A stretch of 47,961 bases of DNA, taken from positions 1 to 47,961 of the forward strand of contig DATICZ010000026.1 of NCBI GenBank assembly GCA_035456525.1. The letters run 5' to 3'. Below are positions 20,473 through 38,840 of this stretch, piece after piece. Position 1 is the stretch's first letter; the number at the start of each line of letters is the position of its first letter. The DNA comes from Gemmatimonadales bacterium. GTDB lineage: Bacteria > Gemmatimonadota > Gemmatimonadetes > Gemmatimonadales > GWC2-71-9. The notes beneath the pieces are model-generated. The model worked only from the letters and a program-made list of their open reading frames with translations, made no database searches and was not told the DNA's origin. A program made the position numbers and the translations under genes.

Positions 20473-21496
20473 GCGCCCGCTGGCCCAGCTCACCCTCGCC
20501 TGGATGCGGGGCTTCTACCGGGAGCCCGAAGCGCTCTTCTGGGTGTTCGGATTCCCGATCGTGCTCGCGTTCGCGCTCGGCATCGCCTTCAAGAACCGCG
20601 GCCCGGGCGAGCTGCGCGTCGGCGTGGCGCGCGGGGCGGGGGACAGTGCCGCGGCGAGCGTCCTCGAGACCGCGCCCGGTCTCGCCGCCGTCGTGCTGGA
20701 CAGCGCGGCGGCCCGGGCGGCGTTGCGCACCGGCCGGGTCGCGCTCGTCGTAGTGCCCGGCGAGCCGGTGGTGTACCGCTACGATTCGACGCGGACCGAG
20801 AGCCGGCTCGCGCGCCTCGAGGTGGACGAGGCGCTGCAGCGCCAGCGCGGGCGCGCCGACCCCGTCCTGGTGCGCGACGATCGCACCACCGAGCCAGGGT
20901 CGCGCTACATCGATTTTCTGATCCCGGGCTTGCTCGGCATGAATCTGATGGGCAGCGGCCTGTGGGGCGTGGGATTCACGGTCGTGCAGGCGCGGACCAA
21001 GGGATTGTTGAAGCGCTTCCTCGCCACCCCGATGCGCAAGGGTGAGTACCTGCTGTCCTACATGCTGTCGCGTCTCGTTTTTCTGGTGATCGAGGTGGCG
21101 GCCCTGATCGGATTCGGCTGGCTGGTATTCGACGTCGGCGTGCGGGGGTCGGTCGCCGTATTGGGCCTGGTGACGCTGATCGGCGCGTTTTCGTTCGCCG
21201 GGCTGGGACTGCTGGTCGCCAGCCGGGCCAAGACGGTCGAGGCGGTGTCGGGTCTCATGAACCTGGTGATGCTGCCGATGTGGATCCTCTCGGGGACGTT
21301 CTTCTCCTATGCCCGGTTTCCCGAAGCGCTGCAGCCGTTCGTGAAGGCATTGCCGCTCACCGGGTTGAACGACGCTCTGCGAGGGGTGATGATCGACGGA
21401 TCGTCCCTGGCGGGCATCGCGGCACCGGTCGCGGTGGTCGCCGGGTGGGGAGCGCTGAGCTTCATCGTCGCGGTGAAGATCTTCCGCTGGCGCTAG
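20465..21496 (+). CDS. ABC-2-type transporter permease
   Basis: 343 aa. One N-terminal TM, an extracytoplasmic loop, then 5 TM segments (YadH/NatB-like layout). It shares an 8-nt overlap with the ATPase gene. Confidence 0.85.
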   Translation: MTERPLAQLTLAWMRGFYREPEALFWVFGFPIVLAFALGIAFKNRGPGELRVGVARGAGDSAAASVLETAPGLAAVVLDSAAARAALRTGRVALVVVPGEPVVYRYDSTRTESRLARLEVDEALQRQRGRADPVLVRDDRTTEPGSRYIDFLIPGLLGMNLMGSGLWGVGFTVVQARTKGLLKRFLATPMRKGEYLLSYMLSRLVFLVIEVAALIGFGWLVFDVGVRGSVAVLGLVTLIGAFSFAGLGLLVASRAKTVEAVSGLMNLVMLPMWILSGTFFSYARFPEALQPFVKALPLTGLNDALRGVMIDGSSLAGIAAPVAVVAGWGALSFIVAVKIFRWR

Positions 21497-21553
21497 ATTG
21501 GCGGATTGGGGTGATCGGCTGTCCCAGCCCGTGAGGTTCGCGAGGAGGCTCCC

Positions 21554-21976
21554 ATGCCCGATTCCATCACGCTGGCGGACTACTACTACACGATGGTTCC
21601 CGACAAGCCCGGCGAGGGCGTACGCGTGTTGAACGTGCTGCGGGACGCCGGGGTCAATCTCCTGGCGTACTCGGGATTCCCGGCCGCGCGGCGCACCCAG
21701 ATCGACTTCGTTCCGGAGAACGCGCCGGCGTTTCTGGCCGCGGCCAAGGCGGCGAAGATCAAGCTCACCGGTCCCAAGAAGGTATTCCTGATCAACGGCG
21801 AAGATCGGCCGGGCGCGGTGGCGGGGCTCTACGAGAAACTCGCCGCGGCGAAGATCAACGTCACGGCGACTGACGCGGTGTGCGCAGGAATGGGGCGTTA
21901 CGGCGCGATCCTGTGGGTGAAGCCGCGAGACGTGAAGAAGGCGGCGCAGGTGCTGGGGGTCGCTCAGTCCGGCTGA
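21554..21976 (+). CDS. tandem ACT-domain protein
   Basis: 140 aa. Two approximately 65-aa units each begin with a beta-strand plus DxPG loop (YYTMVPDKPGEGVRVL; VFLINGEDRPGAVAGL). AGGAGG lies upstream of the ATG. Confidence 0.7.
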   Translation: MPDSITLADYYYTMVPDKPGEGVRVLNVLRDAGVNLLAYSGFPAARRTQIDFVPENAPAFLAAAKAAKIKLTGPKKVFLINGEDRPGAVAGLYEKLAAAKINVTATDAVCAGMGRYGAILWVKPRDVKKAAQVLGVAQSG

Positions 21977-24900
21977 GCGCCGACCAGTCGATGTCGTTGC
22001 GAACGCCGCTCCACACTTCGAGCGGCCCGACGAGCATCCGGTTCCCGACGGAGTTGCCCTCCAGGACGATCCAGTAGCGCTCCGTCGGAGGCATGCCTTC
22101 GTGCGTGATGGCCAGCGGCTTTCCGTCCACGGCGATGCCACACCGGCCGTCCGGGAAGAGCTGGACCACGAGGGAGTACCACTTTTCCAGGTTCACCCGG
22201 GTGGGAAGTGGCACCGCACGACGGTCGAAGTATGTCCAGGGCCGGGTGAACACGCCGTCACCAGGAGCGTACTGAAAACCGCATTCCCGCGCCTCCAATC
22301 CTGCCGTCGGCAGATTGCCGGTCCGGTGATCCCAGCGCACCAGTCCAGCCGAGTCGATGTTCGTCGTGAAGGCGATGTGCACGTTCTGCTGTCGCGGCCC
22401 GACCACCGGGGTGGACAGCTGCACGGCGATGCCGAGCCCGTGTGCCACCGGGAAGCGGCGGCGGGCGTACGCACCGCTCATGTACCACCCGTCGCCGTGG
22501 TTCCAGAAGGCGGGCGTTCCACCCGGTCCGACCGTGGTCGCGGGCCGTGGGTCGCCGAACGGCACCCATTGCGATTGCAGCGGGCCCGCCCACTCTTCCT
22601 TCAGTAGGACCGCGGATGGAGGTGCCGGCCCGATCACGAGGTTGACTGCGGCCTCCCGCCAGCCGCCGGCCGAGGCGCGCACGGTGACGGTTCCTGGACG
22701 CCGTGTGTACACCAAACCGCTCGGGTGGGCCACTGTCGCGAGTGTCGTATCATCGGAGCGCCAGGACAGCGCTTCCAGCGGAACGGGGGCGCCGGTCGGG
22801 TCAAATCCTCGAGCGACCAACTGGTACTCCGACCCGACCGCCACCGTATCGGAGCCGGCCGGGATCTCGAGGCGGGCCAGATAGCGTGGCCTCGCACCTG
22901 TGGGCAGCCAGCGCAACGTGTAGCGGCTGCCCGCATCGGGTCCGAACAGCACGCGTCGCGCCAGATCCGGCCGCTCGGACGGATACACGTACCAGTCGGC
23001 GCGGGCGAGACCTGCCCGCGTGCACCAGCACGCTTCCCACCGGCCGTCGGGGCTGAAGGACCGCGACCCGTCCCAGACCCCGTCGACGATGACCGTTCCG
23101 CCTGTCCTCAGGCCGAGGCGGACGACGCCTGAGGTACCGGAAGTGTCGATCGACAGGAGGAGCTGATCGGCGTCGTACCATCCCAGCAGGTTGTATGGTC
23201 CCCACACGTGGCAACTCGGCGTCCCGCCGCTGATCGTGAGGATGCAGATGCGCTGGGTCCCGTGACCCTCTTCGAGCGACTGATGACTGTAGGCCACGCG
23301 GGTCCCGTCCGGACTCCAGTAGGGGTTCCAGTCCCCCGGCTCCCCGTGGGTCAGCTCGCTGACTGCGCGCGTCGCCACATCGAGTACAGACAGGCGGGGA
23401 TAGCGATAGGGATTGCCGCCCGTGGAGCTGAAGACCAGCCGGCGACCATCCGGCGACCAGGACGGTGCGGCATCATCGCCCGGTGAGTACGTGAGGCGCC
23501 GCACCGTGCCATCCGGTCGCGTCAGGAACAGGTCGATGTCCCCCGAGTCGCCGCTCATGTCGGCGAACGCCCAGGTGAGACCATCGGGACTGGGGACCCA
23601 CGAAGCGTTGTAGTGTCGGCCGGCCCCGACCAAAGTCCGGTAGGGGCTTCCCAGCCCTCCGACGTCCAGCGGGGGGGGAGCGCCTGTTTCCCAGTCGTCC
23701 CGCCGCAACGCGACGGTGCGTGCCTCGAGCGAATCGCTCCCGGTCCGGATGACCACGAGGGTGATGTCGGGTAGCGGTGAGGCTGGCCGCAGCAGCCACG
23801 CCGTCACGCCTGCGCCGACCGCGATGACACCCAACGCCGTCGCCGCGATGCGTCGCCCGGTCACCAGGCCGAGTCGTACGTACGCCGGCAGAGAGCGCAC
23901 CAGCTGTGAGACTCGCGGAGGAGTGGCGGTCTCGCCGAGCAGATCCACAGCGACCGCCCGGGCCGGGCGCCGCTCCGCGCGGCGCCGCTGTAGCAGCAGG
24001 CGGCGCCGGAAGACGCGGGTCAACTGCTCCTCTTCTCCTGCCGCCGCGAGGTGGCGTCCCGCCCGCTGCAGGATTCCCGGATCGTCCCTGCCGGTCGCGG
24101 CAAGGAGGCGGCCGAGGGTGGCGTTGGCCGCCCGCCGCGCACCCGGTGTGGCGACCTCCAGGACGCGGGCGGCGATTTCGTCATGCGCCGGCTGCCACTC
24201 GCCGCCGTCGCGAGCCACGAGCCCACGCACATCGAGCGCGAGCAGGTCGGCCTGCACCGCCTCGAGGTCCCGGCCCGCCGCTCGAGCCAACACGTCGGTC
24301 GGGAGCGGCGTTCCCGCGGTCGCAAGCAGCGCCAGCAGCCAGGATTCACGACGGGAGAGCGCTGCGAGGCGGCGCCGCAACGGCCAGCCCTGCGCCAGCA
24401 TGGCGTCGAGCTCGGTAGGCTCGCGACACGACCACGCGCCGTCAACGAGTGTCAAGGTGCCCTGTTCCAGCAGCAGGTTGAGCGTTTCCAGCACGAGCAG
24501 CGGCGTGCCCGCGGTGGTCGTGTAGAGCGCGCCGGCGAATCGAGTGGCCCAAGGTTCGGCCGGCAGTCGCCCCAGACTCGCGAGCAGCGCACCGACTCCA
24601 TCCGCCGTCAGCGGCTCCAGTGCGAGCGGCTCCACCGAGACGCGACCCACTGCGCCGGAGATACCGGGTCGGGCGGCCGTGACGACGAGCACCGCGTGCT
24701 TCAAGGCCAGGGAAAGCAGGTGGTTCAGGACCTGACGCGACGGCTCGTCGATCCAGTGCACGTCGTCGATGAGGAGCGCCACCGGGTGCTCCTCGGCGAC
24801 CGCTCGGAGCAGTTCGGCCAGCGCGATCGTCCGGCGTCGCAGCGCCTCGAGGTCGGACGCGCGGTCGGGTGCGGCACCGTAGTAAGACGACAGGGTCGGG

Positions 24901-26018
24901 TTCAGTGCCACGAGCGCCGCCGCCGAGTCGGGAGAGACAGCGGCGGCGCCGGGAAGGTGCGCCAGCGCGAGTCCCACCTCGGACACGAGGGCGTAGGGCA
25001 CCGATCGCTCTCCCGGGTTGGCGCGGGCGACGACGACGCGACTCCCCATGGTGCGCAGCCGGGCGTGTACGTCGGCCAACAGCCGGGTCTTGCCGAGCCC
25101 GGCGGCGCCGGTGATGTGGACGTGCCGCCCCAGGCCGCCGCGCGCCGCACCCCAGGCGGCGAGGATGGCGGCGAATTCGCGCTCGCGTCCGATCAGCTCC
25201 GTGCTGAGCGACTGCTTCGTGGAGACGGCCGGGTTCTCAGGCGCCGCCTGATGCACCAGGGCGAGCAGGCCGACGGTCGCGGGCTCCGGCGGGCGATCGG
25301 CACGTGTGAGGACCTGCTCGAGGCGATGCGCCGCGAGCTCCGCGCCGACGCGGTCGTTGGCGGCGAGCAGTGTTTCGAGCTCGAGCCGCCAGCCGCTCTC
25401 GTCGTCGGGATCGTTCTCGCGCAGCCGGGCCGCGAGGTCCTTGGCCTTGCGCAACCGGCCTCTCGTCATCCAGTCGCGCACGACCGTCTCGCCCGCCCGG
25501 CGGAACATCCGCCGCAGCCGGTAGCGCTCGAGATCGGCCCACTGCTCGAAATCCGCACCTCCCGGGGCCGCGAAGCCGGGGAGGAAGTCGCCGCCGTAAA
25601 GGTCGAGTGCACGCTCGAATTCGACCTGCTCGATCGCCTCGAGGAACGCATCGCGATCCGAGTCTCCGGTGGCGCACAGCGTCACCGTGTCGTCGGTGGC
25701 CGTGATGGCGTGCTCTCCGAGACGCTGGCGCAGGAGCCAGACGGCCTGACGAACGGAGTGACGCGCGGCCTCGGTGTCCTGGTCGGCCCAGAGCAGATCC
25801 ATGAGGTGCTCGCGGCTGGCCGAGTGGCCGGGGGAGCAGGCGAGGTAGACGTAGAGGCCGAGCGGTTTGCTGGAGGACAGCAGCTCGTGGCGCTCGCCCG
25901 ATTCGGTGACGCGCGCGAGGGAGGCTCGTCCGAGAGTAGTGAGGACGAGTCGGCCGGAGGGATTCAGCTGAAGTGCCTGCCCGTTCGACATTTGACGCCC
26001 GATAGACGCTCGGTTCAC
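21861..26018 (-). CDS. membrane-spanning SARP/AfsR-like regulator: wHTH + BTAD + P-loop NTPase (AAA_16/STAND-like) + 1 TM + periplasmic PD40 beta-propeller + Big_2 + LamG/ConA-like domain
   Basis: 1385 aa. Residues about 25-100 are OmpR-type wHTH (REHLMDLLWADQDTEAARHSVRQAVWLLRQRLG). BTAD follows (ALDLYGGDFLPGF...FEQWADLERYRLRR). Walker A is ITGAAGLGKTRLL and Walker B is VALLIDDVHWIDEPS. The TM helix is at about 724-743 (IAATALGVIAVGAGVTAWLL). PD40-type repeats follow (SWSPDGRRLVFSS, YWSPDGTRVAYSH, SFSPDGRW). A Big_2-like stretch is TVAVGSEYQLVARGFDPTGAPVP...GTVTVRASAGG. The alternative start Met10 is at 25991. Confidence 0.85.
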   Translation of the reverse strand: MNRASIGRQMSNGQALQLNPSGRLVLTTLGRASLARVTESGERHELLSSSKPLGLYVYLACSPGHSASREHLMDLLWADQDTEAARHSVRQAVWLLRQRLGEHAITATDDTVTLCATGDSDRDAFLEAIEQVEFERALDLYGGDFLPGFAAPGGADFEQWADLERYRLRRMFRRAGETVVRDWMTRGRLRKAKDLAARLRENDPDDESGWRLELETLLAANDRVGAELAAHRLEQVLTRADRPPEPATVGLLALVHQAAPENPAVSTKQSLSTELIGREREFAAILAAWGAARGGLGRHVHITGAAGLGKTRLLADVHARLRTMGSRVVVARANPGERSVPYALVSEVGLALAHLPGAAAVSPDSAAALVALNPTLSSYYGAAPDRASDLEALRRRTIALAELLRAVAEEHPVALLIDDVHWIDEPSRQVLNHLLSLALKHAVLVVTAARPGISGAVGRVSVEPLALEPLTADGVGALLASLGRLPAEPWATRFAGALYTTTAGTPLLVLETLNLLLEQGTLTLVDGAWSCREPTELDAMLAQGWPLRRRLAALSRRESWLLALLATAGTPLPTDVLARAAGRDLEAVQADLLALDVRGLVARDGGEWQPAHDEIAARVLEVATPGARRAANATLGRLLAATGRDDPGILQRAGRHLAAAGEEEQLTRVFRRRLLLQRRRAERRPARAVAVDLLGETATPPRVSQLVRSLPAYVRLGLVTGRRIAATALGVIAVGAGVTAWLLRPASPLPDITLVVIRTGSDSLEARTVALRRDDWETGAPPPLDVGGLGSPYRTLVGAGRHYNASWVPSPDGLTWAFADMSGDSGDIDLFLTRPDGTVRRLTYSPGDDAAPSWSPDGRRLVFSSTGGNPYRYPRLSVLDVATRAVSELTHGEPGDWNPYWSPDGTRVAYSHQSLEEGHGTQRICILTISGGTPSCHVWGPYNLLGWYDADQLLLSIDTSGTSGVVRLGLRTGGTVIVDGVWDGSRSFSPDGRWEACWCTRAGLARADWYVYPSERPDLARRVLFGPDAGSRYTLRWLPTGARPRYLARLEIPAGSDTVAVGSEYQLVARGFDPTGAPVPLEALSWRSDDTTLATVAHPSGLVYTRRPGTVTVRASAGGWREAAVNLVIGPAPPSAVLLKEEWAGPLQSQWVPFGDPRPATTVGPGGTPAFWNHGDGWYMSGAYARRRFPVAHGLGIAVQLSTPVVGPRQQNVHIAFTTNIDSAGLVRWDHRTGNLPTAGLEARECGFQYAPGDGVFTRPWTYFDRRAVPLPTRVNLEKWYSLVVQLFPDGRCGIAVDGKPLAITHEGMPPTERYWIVLEGNSVGNRMLVGPLEVWSGVRNDIDWSALSRTERPPAPAPPSSRLAASPTGSRRNAPFLRTPRQSP

Positions 26019-26039
26019 AGCCTGTATGCGACCACTGAC

Positions 26040-26058
26040 GTGACCGCCCCTCGGTCAC
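26040..26058. promoter_or_regulatory. 7-bp palindrome in the 5' leader of the regulator gene
   Basis: GTGACCG-ccccT-CGGTCAC lies 22-40 nt upstream of the ATG at 26018. It could be an operator or an RNA hairpin. Confidence 0.25.
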
Positions 26059-26260
26059 CGGTCGTCCGTCGGGATGTGCTTCGCTCCTGCTAGGGAGAAG
26101 CTACGGCGGATGGGCGGGTCAGCAAGGCGCCGTGTGCGTGGCCGGGGGGTTGGGCGATCGAGCCATTTCGGCTTGCCGCCCGAGCGGCTTCATAGGAATT
26201 CCATGGCCGGCTGATAGGGAGTTCTGGGAGATCGCCGGGCCCTCTGCGCGTTCGCTGACG

Positions 26261-28006
26261 TCAACTTACCCTGAGCAGCGCCAGCATCTTCTTCAACACC
26301 CCCCCGGTGGCCAGATCCAATGCCTCCCGGAACGCCCCCGCGTTGGGGAACCGCTGCGCCGGATCGCTGCGCACCGCGCGCCGCAGTACCTCCTCGATCT
26401 CGCGCGACACATCCGGGCGTGCCTCTCGCAGCGCCGGCACGTTGTCCGTGGTCTGCATCGCCAGGATGGCCTCGGGTGTCGGTCCCTCGAACGGCGCTCG
26501 GCCCAGCAGGGCGAAATAGGCGACGGCCCCGAGGGAGTAGAGGTCGGTGCGCGGATCCACGCGCTCCCCCAGCAGCTGCTCTGGCGCGGCGAACTGCGGC
26601 GTGCCGCTGCGCGACGTCGCCCCGCCGAAGCGGTCGCCGCGCAACGCCAGCGCCAGCCCGAAATCGGTGATCCGCAACAGGCCGGTCGGCTCGAGCAGCA
26701 TGTTCTCGGGCTTGATGTCCCGGTGGACGAGGCCCAGGGCGTGCGCGTGCTCGAGCGCGCTCAACGCCTCGAACAGGACCCGGGTCGTCTTCTGGAGCGG
26801 GAACGGTCCATCCTTCTTCACGATCTGGGCGAGGTTCGCTCCCGGCACCAGCTCCATGACGTACCACTGCAGGCCGGCGCGACTCTGAATGTCGTAGATG
26901 CTCACGATGTTGGGATGGCGCAGCCGGGCGGCGAGCATGGCCTCGCGCCGGAACCGCTCCATCACGCCGGGATCGGCCGTCAGCTGGGGGTGCAACACCT
27001 TGATGGCCACTTCCCGCTCGAGCCCCAGGTCGCGCACCCGGTACACGCGGCCGAACCCGCCCGCGCCGATCTCCTCGAGCAGCTCGTAATCGTCGCCGAA
27101 CGCCCGGCGCAGGCGGCGCTCGAACCCCTTCTCGCTCGTGGCCGGGGCCGCCGCCGGCTCGTGGAAGACGCCGGCATCGGACACGAAGTCCTCGAGCATC
27201 TCCGTGGCCGTGAAGTAGCGCTCCCGCGGGGTGGGCCGCAGCGCTCGCAGTACCACGCGCTCCACGGCCGACGGCACCGCGGGACGCAAGGATCGCGGCG
27301 GCACCGGCGGCGTCTCCGGCTCCTTGCCCGTGAGGGCGTAGTACACGATCGCCGCGACGGCGTATACGTCGCTCGCCGGCTCGCCGGCCTCGCGCGCGCA
27401 CACCTCGGGCGCCGAGAACGGCGTCACATGGGCGGGATCGTCCGCGGGAACGTGCGAGAGGCACCAGTTCGAGTAGCGCAGGTCGGTGACGACTCCGCGC
27501 CCCGAGAGCTCGAGGATCAGGGTGGTCGGCACGATGCGGCGGATGATGATGCCGCGCGCGTGCGCGTGCTCGAGCGCGCCCAGCAGGTCGCGCACCAGCG
27601 ACATGACGCTCGGAATCGGCCTGGGGCCCCGCCGCATCGCCTCGGCGAGACTCTCGCCGTCGATCCAGTTGGTGGTGCGGTAGGCGAACGGTCCGACCTC
27701 GCCCGCGGCGTAGACGTGGCGCACCGCCGGGTGGTTGAGCGCCGCCAGGGTCTCGTTCTCGCGCAGGAACCAGGCGCGCCCGGGCGAGTCGGGGATGAGG
27801 TGGACGCGCAGCGCCACGCTGCGCTTCAGCCGGCGGTCCCACGCCCGGTACAACGCGCGCTCGCGCGACAGCTCGACCAGGTGGTCGAGCCGAAAATCGG
27901 GCTCGAGCGCCGGCGTGATGCCGCTGAGAAGATCGACCGGCGGAGTGTCGGAGGACGTCAACGGGATCCGCCCTCGATCGGTAGAGGGACCGTTACCACT
28001 CCCCAC
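26261..28006 (-). CDS. soluble tandem pseudokinase + Hanks-type Ser/Thr protein kinase
   Basis: 581 aa with no TM segment. The C-terminal half (about aa 307-563) is canonical: GAGGFGRVY, VAIK, HRDIKPEN, DFG, APE. The N-terminal half (about aa 38-274) has kinase-like spacing but degenerate motifs: no Gly loop, VALR for VAIK, IRRIVPTT for HRDxKPxN, DLR for DFG. SAPE and DVYAVA are retained. The alternative TTG start at 27961 overlaps the upstream stop (TTGA). Confidence 0.85.
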   Translation of the reverse strand: MGSGNGPSTDRGRIPLTSSDTPPVDLLSGITPALEPDFRLDHLVELSRERALYRAWDRRLKRSVALRVHLIPDSPGRAWFLRENETLAALNHPAVRHVYAAGEVGPFAYRTTNWIDGESLAEAMRRGPRPIPSVMSLVRDLLGALEHAHARGIIIRRIVPTTLILELSGRGVVTDLRYSNWCLSHVPADDPAHVTPFSAPEVCAREAGEPASDVYAVAAIVYYALTGKEPETPPVPPRSLRPAVPSAVERVVLRALRPTPRERYFTATEMLEDFVSDAGVFHEPAAAPATSEKGFERRLRRAFGDDYELLEEIGAGGFGRVYRVRDLGLEREVAIKVLHPQLTADPGVMERFRREAMLAARLRHPNIVSIYDIQSRAGLQWYVMELVPGANLAQIVKKDGPFPLQKTTRVLFEALSALEHAHALGLVHRDIKPENMLLEPTGLLRITDFGLALALRGDRFGGATSRSGTPQFAAPEQLLGERVDPRTDLYSLGAVAYFALLGRAPFEGPTPEAILAMQTTDNVPALREARPDVSREIEEVLRRAVRSDPAQRFPNAGAFREALDLATGGVLKKMLALLRVS

Positions 28007-29025
28007 CCGCTCATCGCGGTGCGGGCGTAGCGCACATCCCGCAACCGCACGACCGGGGAAGGGGTCGAGTCCACCTCACCTGCCAGGAACCGGGCGAAAC
28101 CTTCCATTGCCCGCCCCGCTGCGGTTTGTCGTAACGCCGCCTGCACGTGCACGTCGTCCAGGTGCCGGGGGACGGCCCAGCCGCGCCCGGCCACGCTGTC
28201 GCGAGAGGCGTAGACCGCCTCCCACCGAAACGGACTGCCGACGCTGGTCAGCGCGGCCCACGTCGCGCCCGGGCCAAATCGCGCGACCGCTTCGCGGTGC
28301 ACCCTGGCTTTCGCGGGTCCGCTGGCCACCGCCTGCATCGCCGCGTACCCGGCGAGCACGGCGAGCGACCACGCGGCGGCCGTCCGCCGTCCCGCCACGC
28401 CGAACCAGTGACGCACCCAGCCCACCACCCCGAGTGCGACGAGCGCGACGCTCACCGCGCGCAGCCACGGGGCCGGCACGTTCGGGCGCCAGATGAACTC
28501 CGCCCACAGCACGAAGCCCGCGGCGAGCAGCACCGGGGTGAGGGCCATCCAGTGGCGCGCGGCTCCCCAGGCAAGACCGACCAGTGGGAGGATCCAGAAC
28601 AGGGGATCCACGATCGCCACCCAGTCGGCGTAGTACCACCGGCCGCTCCATGGCAGCCAGGGGCGCAGTCCGTAGGACCCCTGCCAATCCATATAGACGT
28701 GACTCCAGACCGTCAGCGTGACCAGTGCGCCCAGCGTGAGGAGCGAGACCGCTCCGATGCGCCGCCGCAACAGGATGAAGAGTCCCCACAGCACACCGGT
28801 GATCGCCGCCGACTCGACGGCGGCTCCGATGAAGGAGTGGGTGATCCCGCGATGGAGCGTGTAGTACCCGAGCGATCCCCGAAAGGGGCGGAACCCGAGG
28901 AGCGGCTCGGTCCAGTCGGGCGCGTTGGCCGCGACGGCGCCGATCCAGCCGGCGGCCGGTACCTTGCGGCCCGCCACGGCGCGGCCCAGAGCGGCTCCCA
29001 CCACGGCATGGGCGAGGTTGTCCAC
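27958..29025 (-). CDS. membrane-bound metal-dependent hydrolase, DUF457/YdjM family, with C-terminal soluble extension
   Basis: Residue 287 (GTG) of ORF 27958..29883. NLAHAVVGAALG, HRGITHSF, several TM segments, then an approximately 150-aa C-terminal region. The upstream part of the ORF is Arg/Pro-rich shadow. Confidence 0.75.
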   Translation of the reverse strand: MDNLAHAVVGAALGRAVAGRKVPAAGWIGAVAANAPDWTEPLLGFRPFRGSLGYYTLHRGITHSFIGAAVESAAITGVLWGLFILLRRRIGAVSLLTLGALVTLTVWSHVYMDWQGSYGLRPWLPWSGRWYYADWVAIVDPLFWILPLVGLAWGAARHWMALTPVLLAAGFVLWAEFIWRPNVPAPWLRAVSVALVALGVVGWVRHWFGVAGRRTAAAWSLAVLAGYAAMQAVASGPAKARVHREAVARFGPGATWAALTSVGSPFRWEAVYASRDSVAGRGWAVPRHLDDVHVQAALRQTAAGRAMEGFARFLAGEVDSTPSPVVRLRDVRYARTAMSGWGVVTVPLPIEGGSR

Positions 29026-29057
29026 GGGCTGGGAAGATAGCCCCGTCCGCCCTAGCC

Positions 29058-29327
29058 GTGGCGGGGGAGGCGTGTAGGTTAGGCGGCGTGTCAACTTCGG
29101 TTCCCCATACCCGTCGCGAGCGGCGTCGCACACCAGAGCGCCGCGCCCTGATGGACCGGCGCTCCGGAGTTGATCGGCGCGGCCGCGCCGAGCGTCGCCA
29201 GGCGAATCTCGCGGTTGCCGAGGAGCGCCGCGGCGGTGTGGACCGCCGTTCGGGCGTGGATCGGCGCGATGCCGCTCGCCGAATTCCGGGGGAACGCCGG
29301 GAAGAGCCACCCGATCTGCCTTCCTGA
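29058..29327 (+). CDS. Arg-rich micro-protein with duplicated DRRSGVDRR motif (start codon uncertain: GTG 29058, GTG about 29088 or ATG 29151)
   Basis: 89-aa ORF in the divergent spacer. It stops 19 nt before the FHA-protease ATG. Two 30-nt copies sit 87 nt (29 codons) apart, and all five differences fall on the wobble phase (see finding). No clear SD. Confidence 0.4.
   Translation: MAGEACRLGGVSTSVPHTRRERRRTPERRALMDRRSGVDRRGRAERRQANLAVAEERRGGVDRRSGVDRRDAARRIPGERREEPPDLPS
29152..29268 (+). repeat. imperfect 30-nt direct repeat pair (29152-29181 and 29239-29268), 25/30 identical
   Basis: TGGACCGGCGCTCCGGAGTTGATCGGCGCG versus TGGACCGCCGTTCGGGCGTGGATCGGCGCG. The period is 87 nt. Confidence 0.8.
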
Positions 29328-29346
29328 GCGCTGCGCTGTAGACGCA

Positions 29347-31335
29347 ATGCCGTATCTCAAGCTCCAGCTGATGTCGACCGGCCGCATCCTCGAACTGCAC
29401 GACACCGTCGTGCGGCTGGGTCGCGATGCGGCCGCGACAATCCCCTTCATGGGAGACGATGCCCGAGTTGTCTCCACCCGGCACGCCGAGGTACGCCCGG
29501 CGGGGGAGGGGTGGCAGCTGGTGGACCTTGGGAGTCGCAACGGGACCTTCTTGAACGGCCGCCGCATCCAGGGTGAGGCCCCGCTCACCGCCGGAGACGA
29601 GGTGCGCCTGGGGGAAACGGGGCCGCGTGTCAGCGTGCTCGCCGTGAGTCAGGCGCCGCTTCCCGAAGGGACGCTTCCCGAGTTCCAGGCGCCCCAGGTC
29701 GCCCCGCCACCCGAACGGCGCGGGCCGCTGCCGCCGGAGGCCCGTCCCTACGGGGTGACCCTGATCGCGACCGCGACCGGAAAGCGCTTCGAGGCACACG
29801 GCACGCGCATCCGGATCGGCCGCGGCAAGGAGTGCGAGGTCCGCGCGGTCGAGGGCAGCGAGGGAATCGTCTCGCGGGTGCATGCCGAGCTGACCGTGGG
29901 CCCCGGCGGCGGCCTGTCACTGCGGGACGTCGGGAGCAAGAACGGGACGTACCTGAACGGCGACCGCATCGCCGATCCCATGCCGGTGCGGCTGGGCGAC
30001 CGCATTACGCTCGGACCCGGCGGACCCGTCCTGATCGTCGAAGGGATCGGCACCGGGCCCATGAAGGCGGCGGTGCGTCCCCCGGTGGTGCAGGGGATGG
30101 GCCACAACACGGTCATGGGGCTGATCAACAGCGCCCTGGCGCAGGCGCGTGAGGAAAAACGCCGCGGGGGCCGAGGCTCGACCGCCTTCTTCAAGGCGGT
30201 GGCCGAAGAGGTCGGCAAGGACTCCCGGCGCAAATTCCGCTGGCTGACCACGTTGGTCGCGGTGCTCGTGCTGCTGCTCGGCGGAGCCGTGTATGGCGTG
30301 TATTGGCTGCTGTCACAGCAGGTTGAGCAGACTGAGGTCGAACGGCGCAGCGCGGAGGACTCGGCGCGGGCGAGCGCCGAGCGCCTGCGCCACGAGCTGG
30401 AAGCCGCGCGGGCGGCGGCGGCGCCGGCGGCCACGGTGGACAGCCTGCGGGCCCAGCTCGAGTCGGCGCAGGTGCGGACGTCCGAGCTCCGCGCGGCGCT
30501 CGAGCGGGCGCAGGGTGCGCTGGGCCAGCAGTTGGCGCAGGGGGAATCCCAGCGCCTCGCGTCGCAACGCGAGCTCGAGCGTCTGCGCGACCAGCTGAAT
30601 CAGGCCCAACGGACTGCTCCCTCTTCGGGGACGATTGACAGCCTGCGCCGGCAGATGGCCGCGACCGAGGCGCAGGCCGCCAGTCTGGACGCCCGGATGC
30701 GGGCGATTCGTGGCACCGACTTCGCGGCAATCGCGCAGCAGAACCAGGCGGCGGTCGGGCTCATCACGACGCGGTTCGGCAAGAACATCTACAACGGGAC
30801 CGGGTTCGTCATCTCCCCTGATGGATACATGCTCACCAACTGGCACGTCGTAACCGACAGCGGCTACCCCCGGCCGGACACGATGTGGGTGACCATGGCA
30901 GACCAGTCGACCTCCCGCCTGGCCGACGTCATCGCCAGCTCCCAGGAGCGCGACATCGCCCTCATCAGAATGCGCGGCTACCAGGGGCAGTACCTGGCCA
31001 GCGTCGATTGGGGCGGCACCAAGTCGCGACAGGGCGAGCCGGCCGCCCTGATCGGGTATCCGGCCGGATCGGGCTTCGCCCACCTGCGTTCGGCAGTCGT
31101 TCGCACGTCCATGACGGCGGGGATCATCTCCCGCGTGACCGAGGACGTGATCCAGTTCGACGGCATGACGATTGGGGGGTCCTCGGGCAGCCCAGTCTTC
31201 AACGCCAACGGCGAGGTGATCTCGATTCACCGTGCGGGCCTACCCCAGGCGCCCGGGTTTGCGCTGTCGGTGCCGATGCACCATGCCGTCTCGCTCTTGC
31301 CGCCGGAGGTGAAGCAACGGCTCAGTATCCCTTAG
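29347..31335 (+). CDS. FHA-FHA-TM-coiled-coil-trypsin-like (S1) serine protease
   Basis: Met60 of ORF 29170..31335, 662 aa. FHA1 reads VVRLGRD...STRHAEV...LGSRNGTFLNG. FHA2 reads IRIGRGKECEV...VSRVHAEL...VGSKNGTYLNG. The TM helix is at about 299-322 (WLTTLVAVLVLLLGGAVYGVYWLL). An Ala/Gln/Arg-rich coiled coil spans about 325-455. The protease triad candidates are TNWHVV (H500), RDIALIR (D536) and GGSSGSPVF (S613). Confidence 0.85.
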   Translation: MPYLKLQLMSTGRILELHDTVVRLGRDAAATIPFMGDDARVVSTRHAEVRPAGEGWQLVDLGSRNGTFLNGRRIQGEAPLTAGDEVRLGETGPRVSVLAVSQAPLPEGTLPEFQAPQVAPPPERRGPLPPEARPYGVTLIATATGKRFEAHGTRIRIGRGKECEVRAVEGSEGIVSRVHAELTVGPGGGLSLRDVGSKNGTYLNGDRIADPMPVRLGDRITLGPGGPVLIVEGIGTGPMKAAVRPPVVQGMGHNTVMGLINSALAQAREEKRRGGRGSTAFFKAVAEEVGKDSRRKFRWLTTLVAVLVLLLGGAVYGVYWLLSQQVEQTEVERRSAEDSARASAERLRHELEAARAAAAPAATVDSLRAQLESAQVRTSELRAALERAQGALGQQLAQGESQRLASQRELERLRDQLNQAQRTAPSSGTIDSLRRQMAATEAQAASLDARMRAIRGTDFAAIAQQNQAAVGLITTRFGKNIYNGTGFVISPDGYMLTNWHVVTDSGYPRPDTMWVTMADQSTSRLADVIASSQERDIALIRMRGYQGQYLASVDWGGTKSRQGEPAALIGYPAGSGFAHLRSAVVRTSMTAGIISRVTEDVIQFDGMTIGGSSGSPVFNANGEVISIHRAGLPQAPGFALSVPMHHAVSLLPPEVKQRLSIP

Positions 31336-36224: not shown

Positions 36225-36258
36225 CCCCCGTCCCTCTTCCCTCGTCCCTCTACGTCCC
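36225..36258 (-). other. G-quadruplex-type motif (five G3+ runs) in the 44-nt convergent spacer
   Basis: The minus strand reads GGG-ACGTAGA-GGG-ACGA-GGG-AAGA-GGG-AC-GGGGG, beginning in the last codons of the sensor-kinase gene. No hairpin terminator is visible in this spacer. Confidence 0.4.
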
Positions 36259-38757
36259 TGCTCGCCGCGAGGGCCGCGCTGCGACGTCCCGCACCAGCCG
36301 TTCCAGCGCGTCGAAATCGAACGGCTTCACGAGCGAGGGCGCGCCGGAATCGGCCAGCAGCGCCGCCGTATCGGCATCGAGCGAGTCGCCGGTCGCGAAG
36401 ATGAGGGTGGAGACGAGCTCCGGCGCCTGCTCGCGGAGCCGGATGAGGAAATCACGACCGTTCATTCCCGGCATCCGGACATCGCACAGGATCACGTCGA
36501 AGCTCTGGGCGCGGAGCGCGCGGAGCGCCTCGGCGCCGTCGCTGACGGCACGCACCTGCATGCCGCTGCGGTTCAGGAAGCGGGCGGTGGCCTGACGGAT
36601 CCCCGGCTCGTCGTCCACCACGAGCACGGCCACCGGCTGTTCCGCGGCCGCCGGACCCTGAACCGCCGCACCGCCCGAGGGGCGCTGCATGGTGCGGAGG
36701 TCGAGTGGGAGCACGACCTGGAATGCGGCCCCGTGGCCCGGCTCCGATTCGACGGTGATGCGCCCGCCGTGGCTGCGCACGATGCCGTAGCAGATCGAGA
36801 GCCCCAGGCCTGTGCCCACGCCTTCCGGCTTGGTGGTGAAGAACGGATCGAAGATCCGCGAGCGGATTTCCGCCGCGATCCCGGGACCGGTGTCGCGGCA
36901 CTCGAACCTGACTTCGGGCCCCTCGGCGTGCGTGCGGAGCGTGATGCCACGGTGTCCGGGGAAGCCGTCCAGCGCCTGCTCGGCGTTGATCAGGAAGTTC
37001 AAGAGCATCTGCTGCAGCTCCGACATGTTGGCCCAGACCCGCGGCTCGACCGGATCCAGCTCCAGCCGCACTTCGACGTTCAGCGTGTTCAGGTGATAGG
37101 ACCGCAAGGTGTGCGTCCGGCGCACCAGCTCGTTGACGTCCACCAGCGAGCGCTCGGGCCCACTCATCCGGGCGAAGGCGAGCAGGTTGGTGGTGATCTG
37201 GCCGATGCGCATCGCCTCGTCGCGCACCATTTCGACGATCTCGCGCTGCTCGGGGCGGAGGTCGTCCAGCATCAGCGTCTGGGCGAAGCCGGAGATGATT
37301 GCCGCCGGGTTGTTGATCTCGTGCGCCACGCCGCTCACCAGCTGACCCATGGCCGCGAGCTTGTCGGCCTGCTGCAGCTGGCTCTGGGCGCGACGCAGCT
37401 CCGTGACGTCGCGGGCGATGGCCAGCACCCGGGTGATCTGCCCGTGCTCGCGGATCGGGGCATACACCACCGAGCTGACCACGCGTGCCCCGTCGGGCCG
37501 CCGTTGCGGCACCTCGAAGCGGCGCACCTCCCCGGCGAACGCCGCATCGAGGTGGGCGCGCAGCAGCGCGACGGCGTCCGGGTCCACGAAATCGAACGCC
37601 GTGCGGGTCCCGGCGGCCGCGCCGTGGGCCGGCCGGTCCGGCGCGTAATCCAGGACCTGGCCGTCCCGGTTCAGCAGCACGATCGGATCGGGCGACGCCT
37701 CCATGATCTGGCGGAGGTTGCGCTCCGCGGACGCGGTGGTCGTCAGCGAATCGACGAGCGTCTGCGTCTGTCGCTCGACCTCGCGCTCCAGCGCGGCCTC
37801 GTAGCGCCGGTCGGCCACCAGGGAGTACGCAACGCGGGCGGCGATGATCAACCCGCCGACGGTCGGGACCAGGACGTCCTCCGCACCCATCCGGCCCGAG
37901 GCCATACTCTGGAGGTGGAGGCCCACCAGCCCGGCGAGTCCCAGCAGCACCGCCAGCAGGCGCGGTGCGACGGCGCCGCTTCCCGCGGCTGCCGGCCGCG
38001 GTCCCGCCGGGGCCGCGGCGGCCACGACTCCGGCTGAGGCCAGCACCAGGTTGGCGACGTTCCAGCCGAAGTCGAGCACCGTGCCCGGAGCCTGCGCGCG
38101 CGGCAGGCTCACCGTGCCGAACAGCAGGTCGGCGATGCCGTAGAGCAGGAGCCCGACCACCGCGAGCGCCGCGCCGCCCCGTGGCAAGGGATGCGGCTGC
38201 AACAGCAGCATGCCGATCAGCCAGACGAGGGCGAGCCCGCCGGTGGCATAGGCGACGCTGCCCAGGACCTCCGGCTCGCCGACTCCACCCGTGAGCGGCT
38301 CGACGAACAGCTCGTACGCCCAGGCGACGGCGGTGAGGGTGAGCAGCGCGGAGTCGAGCAGAATCTCCGCGGTGAGCTGCCGGCGCGGCTGGATGGCGAG
38401 CAGGTTCCAGGCGGCGATGAAGAAGCACGGATACACCGCGAGGTATCCGATGTCGACGGCGGTCATGCCCGGCCGGACGATCCCTCGCGCCAGCTGGATG
38501 TCGGCGTAGCCCAGGGTGAGGAAATCGACGACGCTTCCCGCGAGCAGCCACCCCCACCCGCGTCGCTGGACCGGATCGGTAGCCGCGCGCCACGCCAGGG
38601 CGATCCCGGCCGTGCGCGCCAGCGCCGTCAGCGTCCAGCTGCCGGCGGGCAGCAGGCTCCGGGGGACGGGAAGAAAGAGGTAAGCCAGGACCAGAGCAGC
38701 CAACAGGCCGCCGGCTGCCACGAGGACGGTGCGGGTGACGCGGGTGCCTGGGATCAC
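36250..38757 (-). CDS. hybrid sensor histidine kinase / response regulator (multi-TM sensor, PAS, HisKA, HATPase_c, receiver)
   Basis: 835 aa with about 8-9 N-terminal TM segments. A PAS-like region ([20 protein letters not shown]) follows. H-box is [14 protein letters not shown]-binding boxes are [10 protein letters not shown]...[15 protein letters not shown]. The receiver reads [11 protein letters not shown]...[14 protein letters not shown]...LVKPFD. Confidence 0.9.
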
Positions 38758-38840
38758 GCGGATAGCCAGAAAGTAGTGACGGGCGCATCCGCAAGCGAGG
38801 GCGCGCGACGCCGCGGAGCCCGCGTTAGCTTAGCGCCGGC

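Follow-up and report, generated by a model that had tools for sequence, protein, structure and literature searches.

The window analysed here, a stretch of 47,961 nucleotides from a Gemmatimonadales bacterium (positions 1 to 47,961 of the forward strand of contig DATICZ010000026.1, assembly GCA_035456525.1; ~70% G+C), encodes on its reverse strand a protein in which a degenerate protein kinase domain lies directly N-terminal to an intact one. A first-pass annotation had described the open reading frame (ORF) at 26261..28006(−) as two kinase-length halves, and every motif quoted there is present in the translation where it had been placed. Read from a GTG codon at 28006, the ORF encodes 581 residues and displays the codon-position G+C pattern of a real gene (third-position G+C, GC3, of 0.90). 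The more likely start, however, is a TTG at 27961 (gene 26261..27961(−), 566 residues), because both the gene callers and the lengths of ~250 homologues favour it over the GTG; the TTG shares nucleotides with the TGA stop of the gene upstream (cgTTGAcg) and has GAGGG at a suitable distance before it. Residue numbers below refer to the 566-residue form.

The Pfam Pkinase profile matches the protein twice, with 166 bits for the C-terminal half and 42.7 bits for the N-terminal half (gathering score 31.7), such that both halves align to the family model above threshold. The resulting layout comprises a pseudokinase domain (residues 20–263, 27173..27904(−), delimited by Pfam, by alignment with Mycobacterium tuberculosis PknB and by the AlphaFold2 model) and a kinase domain (residues 292–552, 26306..27088(−)), with 28 residues between them and a basic amphipathic tail following (GGVLKKMLALLRVS, 26264..26305(−), helical at 555–565 in the model). 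The first part of the connection, residues 264–276 (27134..27172(−)), forms a flexible linker of poorly conserved columns; the second part, residues 277–291 (27089..27133(−)), is an invariant segment that is modelled as a helix over residues 277–288. No domain other than kinase families was found by Pfam, and no transmembrane segment by hydropathy (maximum Kyte–Doolittle score over 19 residues of 1.17), in agreement with the earlier description of a single soluble polypeptide. The AlphaFold2 model of the full-length protein, built on a 128-sequence alignment, has a mean predicted local distance difference test (pLDDT) score of 89.2 and a predicted template modelling score (pTM) of 0.84, low confidence being confined to residues 264–273 of the linker (pLDDT <50) and to the activation loop of the C-terminal domain (residues 437–450). 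A pTM this high for two domains of equal size implies a defined mutual orientation, and the model thus suggests that the pseudokinase and kinase domains are held in a fixed arrangement.

We find that the N-terminal half has the fold of a protein kinase. Residues 38–276 align with residues 14–278 of M. tuberculosis PknB in a search of PDB sequences (E = 3e-22), and the domain modelled alone (pLDDT 93.9, pTM 0.90) has PknB structures as its best PDB matches (TM-score 0.75–0.81, root-mean-square deviation 2.7–3.9 Å, 27–28% identity). Within this fold, the nucleotide-binding and catalytic positions, read from one profile alignment of all kinase-like domains, have been extensively remodelled. The three glycines of the Gly loop, intact in the C-terminal domain, are replaced by Glu, Ser and Arg (Ala, Ser and Arg in most family members); the ATP-anchoring lysine of strand β3, aligned with PknB K40, is Arg52 (VALR, 27806..27808(−)); and the catalytic loop, canonically HRDxKxxN, reads I140-R141-R142-I-V-P-T-T147 (27521..27544(−)), where Ile stands for the His, Arg142 for the catalytic Asp, Val for the Lys and Thr147 for the Asn. 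The αC glutamate (E68), the Arg of HRD (R141) and the APE motif are kept, as is the Asp of DFG, which here reads D160-L161-R162 (27476..27484(−)) with Arg in place of Gly. The first-pass description of a wholesale loss of catalytic motifs is therefore accurate for the Gly loop, the β3 Lys and the Asp, Lys and Asn of the catalytic loop, and needs amending for E68, R141 and D160, all of which are retained.

Taking a pseudokinase to be a kinase fold that lacks at least one of the β3 Lys, the HRD Asp and the DFG Asp, the N-terminal domain is classed by its sequence as a pseudokinase. A displaced catalytic residue would make it an active second kinase, and no conserved Lys or Asp is found at a shifted catalytic position of the N-terminal domain among 128 full-length homologues, which span ~50–100% identity and underlie all column counts given here. 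Position 142 is occupied by Arg in 102 of these, by Lys in 10, His in 9, Gln in 5 and Tyr in 2, and never by Asp; the β3 position is Arg in 126. With the fold predicted at this confidence and the catalytic residues not shifted, the tandem of pseudokinase and kinase in one soluble chain, as first annotated, is genuine.

The C-terminal domain, by contrast with its neighbour, carries the complete set of Hanks motifs, those noted for it earlier among them: GAGGFG, VAIK (K321), E340, HRDIKPEN, DFG, SRSGTPQFAAPE and AAPE. All of its catalytic residues are invariant in the 128 homologues, and its best fold matches are PknB and PknA (TMt 0.79–0.87). Judged by motifs and fold it is predicted to be a Hanks-type, complete PknB-like Ser/Thr kinase.

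The degenerate site is almost invariant: R35, R47, D160 and R162 are present in all 128 homologues, E68 and R141 in 127, and R52, as noted above, in 126. L161 is kept in 116 and P145 in every sequence, the position of the catalytic-loop Asn is Thr in 100 and Ser in 14, and the A, P and E of the APE motif are found in 128, 128 and 127 sequences. In pairwise comparisons with 11 orthologous loci, the ratio of non-synonymous to synonymous substitution rates (dN/dS) is 0.09–0.25 for the pseudokinase half and 0.06–0.22 for the kinase half. The pseudo-active site formed by R35, R52, E68, R141, R/K142, D160 and R162 is under strong purifying selection, and we regard the remodelled, Arg-rich site as itself a conserved feature and the N-terminal domain, a pseudokinase by sequence, as selected rather than a relic.

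Conservation extends to surfaces through which the two domains could communicate. The segment preceding the kinase domain (E281, then L284-R285-R286-A-L-G289-D290-D-Y-E-L-L) is invariant and helical in the model, with E281, R285, R286, G289 and D290 found in 128/128 sequences. The leucine equivalent to PknB L33 is likewise invariant in both domains (L45 and L314, 128/128 each); L33D/E mutants are the crystallised PknB forms among the PDB matches. The invariance of L45 and L314, together with that of the pre-kinase helix, supports an N-lobe interface. The C-terminal tail has a median hydrophobic moment of 0.62 (~92nd percentile within each protein) in many members of the family, not all, and hints weakly at peripheral membrane binding. 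Compared with each other, the two halves share 30% identity (E = 1e-26), and since they are no closer to each other than either is to PknB, internal duplication and fusion of separate kinases are indistinguishable as origins.

The fusion is a property of a phylum rather than of one genome. The closest proteins, ~566 residues long and 72–100% identical, derive from Gemmatimonadales metagenome-assembled genomes (MAGs), where they are named only ‘serine/threonine-protein kinase’. A search of 1.84 billion cluster representatives with the N-terminal half retrieved family members down to ~40% identity, one of which (P0125) led to a second clade of ~590-residue proteins, all from Gemmatimonadota; members of the first clade, to which the window protein belongs, measure 564–572 residues. 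A scan with N-domain alignments, run on a single genome of each GTDB species, yielded 407 relatives for clade 1, of which the best 80 loci are all from MAGs and all from Gemmatimonadota, save one 3-kb contig binned as Steroidobacteraceae, and 68 for clade 2, three of them on closed chromosomes (CP070716, CP070792 and CP070666). All clade-1 loci of sufficient length show the two domains fused, as do 65 of 66 clade-2 loci, such that the fusion occurs in two Gemmatimonadota clades and is conserved across the phylum. As no isolate is common to the clade-1 list (best 80 of 407) and the clade-2 list, there is seemingly one orthologue per genome. The exceptional contig (L049, DATBIF010000413.1, 2996 nt), the sole non-Gemmatimonadota record among 147 loci, carries a YdjM-family gene and a tandem kinase gene at 67–81% identity to the window and is most likely a binning error rather than a horizontal transfer.

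Upstream of the kinase gene, two neighbours recur. On the same strand and immediately adjacent lies a gene for a polytopic YdjM-family membrane protein (27958..29025(−), start codon approximate; Pfam YdjM 74.8 bits), which ends in a TGA overlapping the TTG start codon of the kinase (TTGA) and whose product carries an extra soluble C-terminal domain of ~130 residues that matches no family. Beyond it, divergently oriented, is a gene encoding a two-FHA membrane protease (29347..31335(+), start taken as Met60 of ORF 29170..31335), in which Pfam recognises FHA twice and Trypsin_2 once. The protein comprises two cytoplasmic FHA domains, both with the canonical phospho-threonine-binding residues (GR/SxxH/NGT), one transmembrane helix, a coiled coil of ~140 residues and an HtrA/MarP-like trypsin-like protease domain with an intact His/Asp/Ser triad. 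Even apart from the kinase, a protein that links phospho-threonine reading to an extracytoplasmic protease has an unusual architecture.

Counting only loci with enough upstream sequence (53 in clade 1, 57 in clade 2), the FHA-protease is encoded divergently upstream in 30 clade-1 and 41 clade-2 loci, and the YdjM-family protein upstream in 45 and 0, respectively. In clade 2, a median of 155 nt separates the kinase and protease starts, and the protease is 34–52% identical to that of the window. The neighbour conserved across the phylum is the FHA-protease: it is the partner present in both clades, the YdjM-family gene being confined to clade 1 and a SARP-like downstream gene (described below) to the window. 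The YdjM-family gene has been inserted between the protease and kinase genes in clade 1 as a lineage-specific addition; although translationally coupled to the kinase in the window and present at 45/53 clade-1 loci, its absence from all 57 clade-2 loci led us to reject it as a universal membrane anchor. The amphipathic tail and the YdjM coupling together hint that the kinase works close to the membrane, and neither is universal.

We propose, with a probability of roughly 0.55, that the pseudokinase regulates or scaffolds the fused kinase, which signals to the FHA-protease via phospho-threonine. The degenerate domain would act as a rigid module that does not transfer phosphate, controlling the fused kinase either in cis or, between dimer partners, in trans, via contacts at the N-lobe and αC helix; the mechanism would be that of PknB back-to-back dimers, and the function akin to that of JAK JH2–JH1. 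The active kinase would then create phospho-threonine sites on itself or on its partner, and the protease encoded divergently and anchored in the membrane would read them with its two FHA domains, such that a soluble kinase and an FHA–transmembrane–protease protein might form a two-gene transmembrane signalling unit. The FHA link is supported by the recurrence of the protease gene in divergent orientation and by the canonical residues of both FHA domains.

Several observations weigh against this proposal. FHA domains require phospho-Thr, yet the tandem protein has few conserved exposed threonines: T328 (98%) is the sole family-specific conserved Thr, the activation loop is mostly serine (S450, S452), and T328 excepted we find no convincing exposed, invariant Thr that could serve as a docking site for FHA. 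The protease is missing from ~30–45% of informative loci, including that on the closed chromosome CP070792, which, like the contig of P0125, has unrelated neighbours; moreover, shared ancestry may account in part for an adjacency conserved within one phylum. Finally, no solved tandem such as JAK JH2–JH1 is among the top 50 Foldseek matches, which are all single-domain kinases, and a structural match to JAK was accordingly rejected.

The main alternative to the proposed scheme, and one compatible with regulation, is that the N-terminal domain is a ligand sensor whose Arg-lined pocket binds metal-free ATP or another anionic or phosphorylated ligand and so switches the fused kinase, a reading we consider possible though unlikely. 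Five invariant or near-invariant arginines occupy the Gly-loop, β3, catalytic-loop and DFG positions beside the retained E68 and D160, and there are precedents for nucleotide binding in comparable sites: metal-free ATP binding is modelled or known for the Arg-rich sites of DLHK and ULK4, and the β3 Lys-to-Arg exchange of DYD is modelled as keeping ATP binding (PMC12599244). The same review states, however, that pseudokinases degraded in all motifs ‘nearly always lack ATP-binding’ (PMC12599244); the Gly-rich loop is wholly absent from the domain, and it is equally conceivable that its arginines pair with E68 and D160 in internal salt bridges, filling the pocket. The retention of E68, R141, D160 and the APE/substrate-binding lobe also raises the prospect of a dual enzyme, in which the N-terminal half would be active by a non-canonical mechanism, as an atypical kinase or another transferase in the manner of SelO or SidJ; SelO, SidJ and SdjA are kinase-fold ‘pseudokinases’ with other chemistries (PMC12599244). 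Such activity is improbable given that the catalytic base position is Arg, Lys, His, Gln or Tyr and never Asp or Glu, that the metal-binding Asn has become Thr or Ser and the β3 Lys Arg, that no Gly loop is present, and that no alternative conserved Lys or Asp lies nearby.

A role in immunity was considered in two forms, the degenerate kinase serving as bait for a phage or competitor effector, or the whole protein acting as a single-gene anti-phage kinase like PD-T4-6. PADLOC reports strong matches to PD-T4-6, MAD6, MkoA and PglW (E down to 3.5e-113), and plant tandem kinase proteins (TKPs) show that a kinase–pseudokinase pair can act in immunity; the PADLOC matches, however, cover the generic kinase domain only, and no NCBIfam defence model reaches its cut-off (MAD6 231.6 versus 460; PglW 111.5 versus 990). 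Baits and defence genes are typically patchy in distribution and fast-evolving, whereas this family is conserved phylum-wide, with a dN/dS of 0.09–0.25 in the supposed bait, and the neighbouring genes encode a protease, a YdjM-family protein and an ABC transporter, none of which belongs to defence; we judge an immune function very improbable. The first-pass suggestion that the degenerate half is ‘regulatory or decoy’ thus divides: a regulatory domain is the best reading and a plausible one, and the decoy is disfavoured by purifying selection, phylum-wide occurrence and the lack of a defence context. There is next to no probability that the N-terminal half is the decaying remnant of a duplicated kinase, or that the fusion is an artefact of assembly or annotation. 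The 30% identity between the halves is compatible with an old internal duplication, but the same fusion recurs on well over 100 independent contigs from different studies, closed chromosomes included, the degenerate and active halves have equal dN/dS, the degenerate motifs do not vary and the fold prediction is very confident; these points together refute both readings.

The PADLOC comparison yields one further observation. The PglW (BREX kinase) alignment pairs residues 119–437 of the protein with profile positions 314–660, and the MAD6 alignment pairs residues 121–394 with positions 303–595; both begin in the pseudokinase C-lobe and extend into the N-lobe of the active kinase. PglW and MAD6 could hold a partial or degenerate kinase-like region beside their kinase domain, an alignment artefact being equally possible.

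Among characterised proteins, both tandem domains are closest in sequence and fold to the catalytic domain of PknB (and PknA), with which they share the L33-equivalent leucine and, in the C-terminal domain, all catalytic motifs. The tandem protein differs from PknB in having no transmembrane helix, PASTA or other sensor domain, and in carrying two kinase folds per chain, the first degenerate; it scores 375.8 against NCBIfam PknB_PASTA_kin, below the cut-off of 450. In domain order it resembles JAK JH2–JH1 and GCN2, where a pseudokinase also lies directly N-terminal to an active kinase, and by analogy cis-regulation is likely shared. Its domains, however, are of the PknB-like Ser/Thr type, accompanied by neither FERM/SH2 nor tRNA-synthetase-like domains, and display no specific homology to those systems; the likeness is convergent and of independent origin. 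JAK JH2 binds ATP and keeps its Gly loop and β3 Lys, both of which the N-terminal domain here has lost.

A closer functional parallel is offered by MviN (Rv3910), whose pseudokinase forms back-to-back dimers and whose PknB-phosphorylated tail recruits the FHA domain of FhaA (PMC12599244). MviN, of the ActPs3 family, places a PknB-like pseudokinase scaffold in a kinase/FHA pathway, and the conserved genomic partner of the tandem kinase likewise bears FHA domains. In MviN, however, the pseudokinase is joined to a lipid II flippase-like membrane protein, with PknB as a separate kinase, whereas here pseudokinase and kinase lie in one chain and in another phylum; its motifs, VALT, LSIDHPSR and Y--, with aromatics filling the pocket, contrast with VALR, IRRIVPTT and DLR. 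Other bacterial pseudokinase families also have a PknB-related fold with degraded motifs (O'Boyle et al, 2025, PMC12599244). The β3 Lys-to-Arg exchange is common to DYD and the N-terminal domain, and an Arg-rich site without a transmembrane segment is common to DLHK, CP1 and the tandem protein. Each family is nonetheless set apart by its published description, in that GLW replaces HRD, DYD replaces DFG, ActPs1–3 occur in Actinobacteria, DLHK keeps the HRD Asp and has helicase/DNA2 domains, and CP1 is linked to a COG3899 ATPase (PMC12599244); the tandem protein has none of the defining motifs or linkages of ActPs1–3, GLW, CP1, DYD or DLHK.

Plant TKPs (WTK1/Yr15, Sr62, WTK3 and others) likewise join an active kinase and a pseudokinase in a soluble protein without a receptor domain. 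Their order, going by the first-pass annotation and the title of the Yr15 report, is kinase–pseudokinase, the reverse of that in the Gemmatimonadota protein, and they act in immunity with nucleotide-binding leucine-rich-repeat (NLR) helpers, whereas the bacterial family has a housekeeping-like distribution under purifying selection, with no defence context. Our literature searches on bacterial tandem kinases and pseudokinases returned only plant TKP and eukaryotic work, and neither ‘tandem’ nor ‘Gemmatimon’ occurs in the pseudokinase review (PMC12599244) or in the 2025 preprint ‘Atlas of the Bacterial Serine-Threonine Kinases’, which recognises 42 families. Pseudokinase–kinase tandems and bacterial pseudokinases are each known; the present combination, family and partner are without description in the literature searched. 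A paper on the myxobacterial kinome may mention multi-kinase proteins.

The layout itself is not rare in metagenomes. Denoting domains with intact catalytic residues as A and degenerate ones as p, the 150 best 50%-identity representatives from the exhaustive search of cluster representatives described above are mostly multi-kinase proteins, which the ranking favours since domain scores add up; they include 56 AA, 17 Ap, 11 App, 7 pA and 5 ppA proteins, besides pAAA, ApA and pp (2 each) and ppp, AAAA and ppppAA (1 each). The occurrence of several pA-type layouts indicates that pseudokinase–kinase tandems arose repeatedly in bacteria. The earlier remark that this layout is little described in bacteria thus holds for the literature searched, the 2025 surveys being silent on it, and does not extend to its frequency in metagenomes. 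What is specific to the Gemmatimonadota family is its phylum-wide orthology, its fixed Arg-rich pseudo-active site and its conserved FHA-protease partner.

Named examples of multi-kinase proteins come from Acidobacteriota and Anaerolineae MAGs. Some metagenomic proteins carry up to six kinase-like domains: one of 2573 residues (P0215) has four degenerate kinase domains followed by two intact ones; another of 963 residues (P0240) has three pseudokinase domains, all with β3 Arg, HTLGR and GFG; and in two more (P0132 and P0149) a single degenerate domain precedes three that are intact.

What is understood of how pseudokinases control kinases comes almost wholly from eukaryotic systems (JAK, GCN2, HER3, STRAD). 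The present family offers a small (566 residues), soluble, single-chain bacterial case, with intact kinase motifs as a read-out, a pseudokinase site that is invariant and hence easy to mutate, a confident structural model and an obvious candidate partner in the two-FHA membrane protease. The control of a live kinase domain by a dead one could be studied in it with ease, and it could also reveal the link between Ser/Thr phosphorylation and proteolysis across the membrane in an abundant soil phylum that has received little study (Gemmatimonadota are found in soil and sediment). A kinase specialist would see it as a tidy, tractable instance of convergence and hardly as a shock. The mixed active/degenerate arrays in metagenomic proteins suggest, in addition, that an architectural class has escaped surveys that treat kinase domains singly. 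Taken to its furthest extent, the argument would be that a JAK-like, cis-regulated pseudokinase–kinase evolved independently in Gemmatimonadota, that its Arg-lined site reads an anionic or phospho-ligand, that it docks by phospho-threonine onto the two-FHA membrane protease to form a split transmembrane receptor coupling Ser/Thr phosphorylation to extracytoplasmic proteolysis, and that proteins combining between two and six kinase and pseudokinase domains (pA, Ap, App, ppA, ppppAA) represent a signalling architecture widespread in bacteria and missed by current kinome surveys; we hold this full version to be doubtful as a whole and put it forward tentatively.

A scan of 25900..29400 for promoters and terminators found nothing, as expected for 70% G+C DNA of a non-model phylum. 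Downstream of the kinase lies a gene for a SARP-like protein of 1385 residues (21861..26018(−)), comprising Trans_reg_C (an OmpR-type winged helix), AAA_16, a transmembrane segment, TolB-like PD40 repeats and a large C-terminal region. This SARP/AfsR-like protein was considered as a substrate in the style of AfsK/AfsR and rejected: its gene is found at 0/147 related loci, and comparison with an 89%-identical locus (L002) reveals that 21496..26252 (~4.8 kb) of the window, which also holds an ACT-domain ORF (21515..21976(+)), is an insertion directly after the kinase stop. At a further locus (L008), with 94% DNA identity over the kinase gene (98–99% in protein), homology ends exactly at the kinase stop, and this site looks like a variable hotspot. 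The region 36250–38829(−) and the rest of the window look ordinary, encoding a hybrid PAS–HisKA–HATPase–receiver histidine kinase, a GH38 α-mannosidase, ABC and MFS transporters, a patatin-like phospholipase, an outer-membrane efflux protein, a phosphodiesterase/sulfatase-like enzyme and an amidohydrolase.

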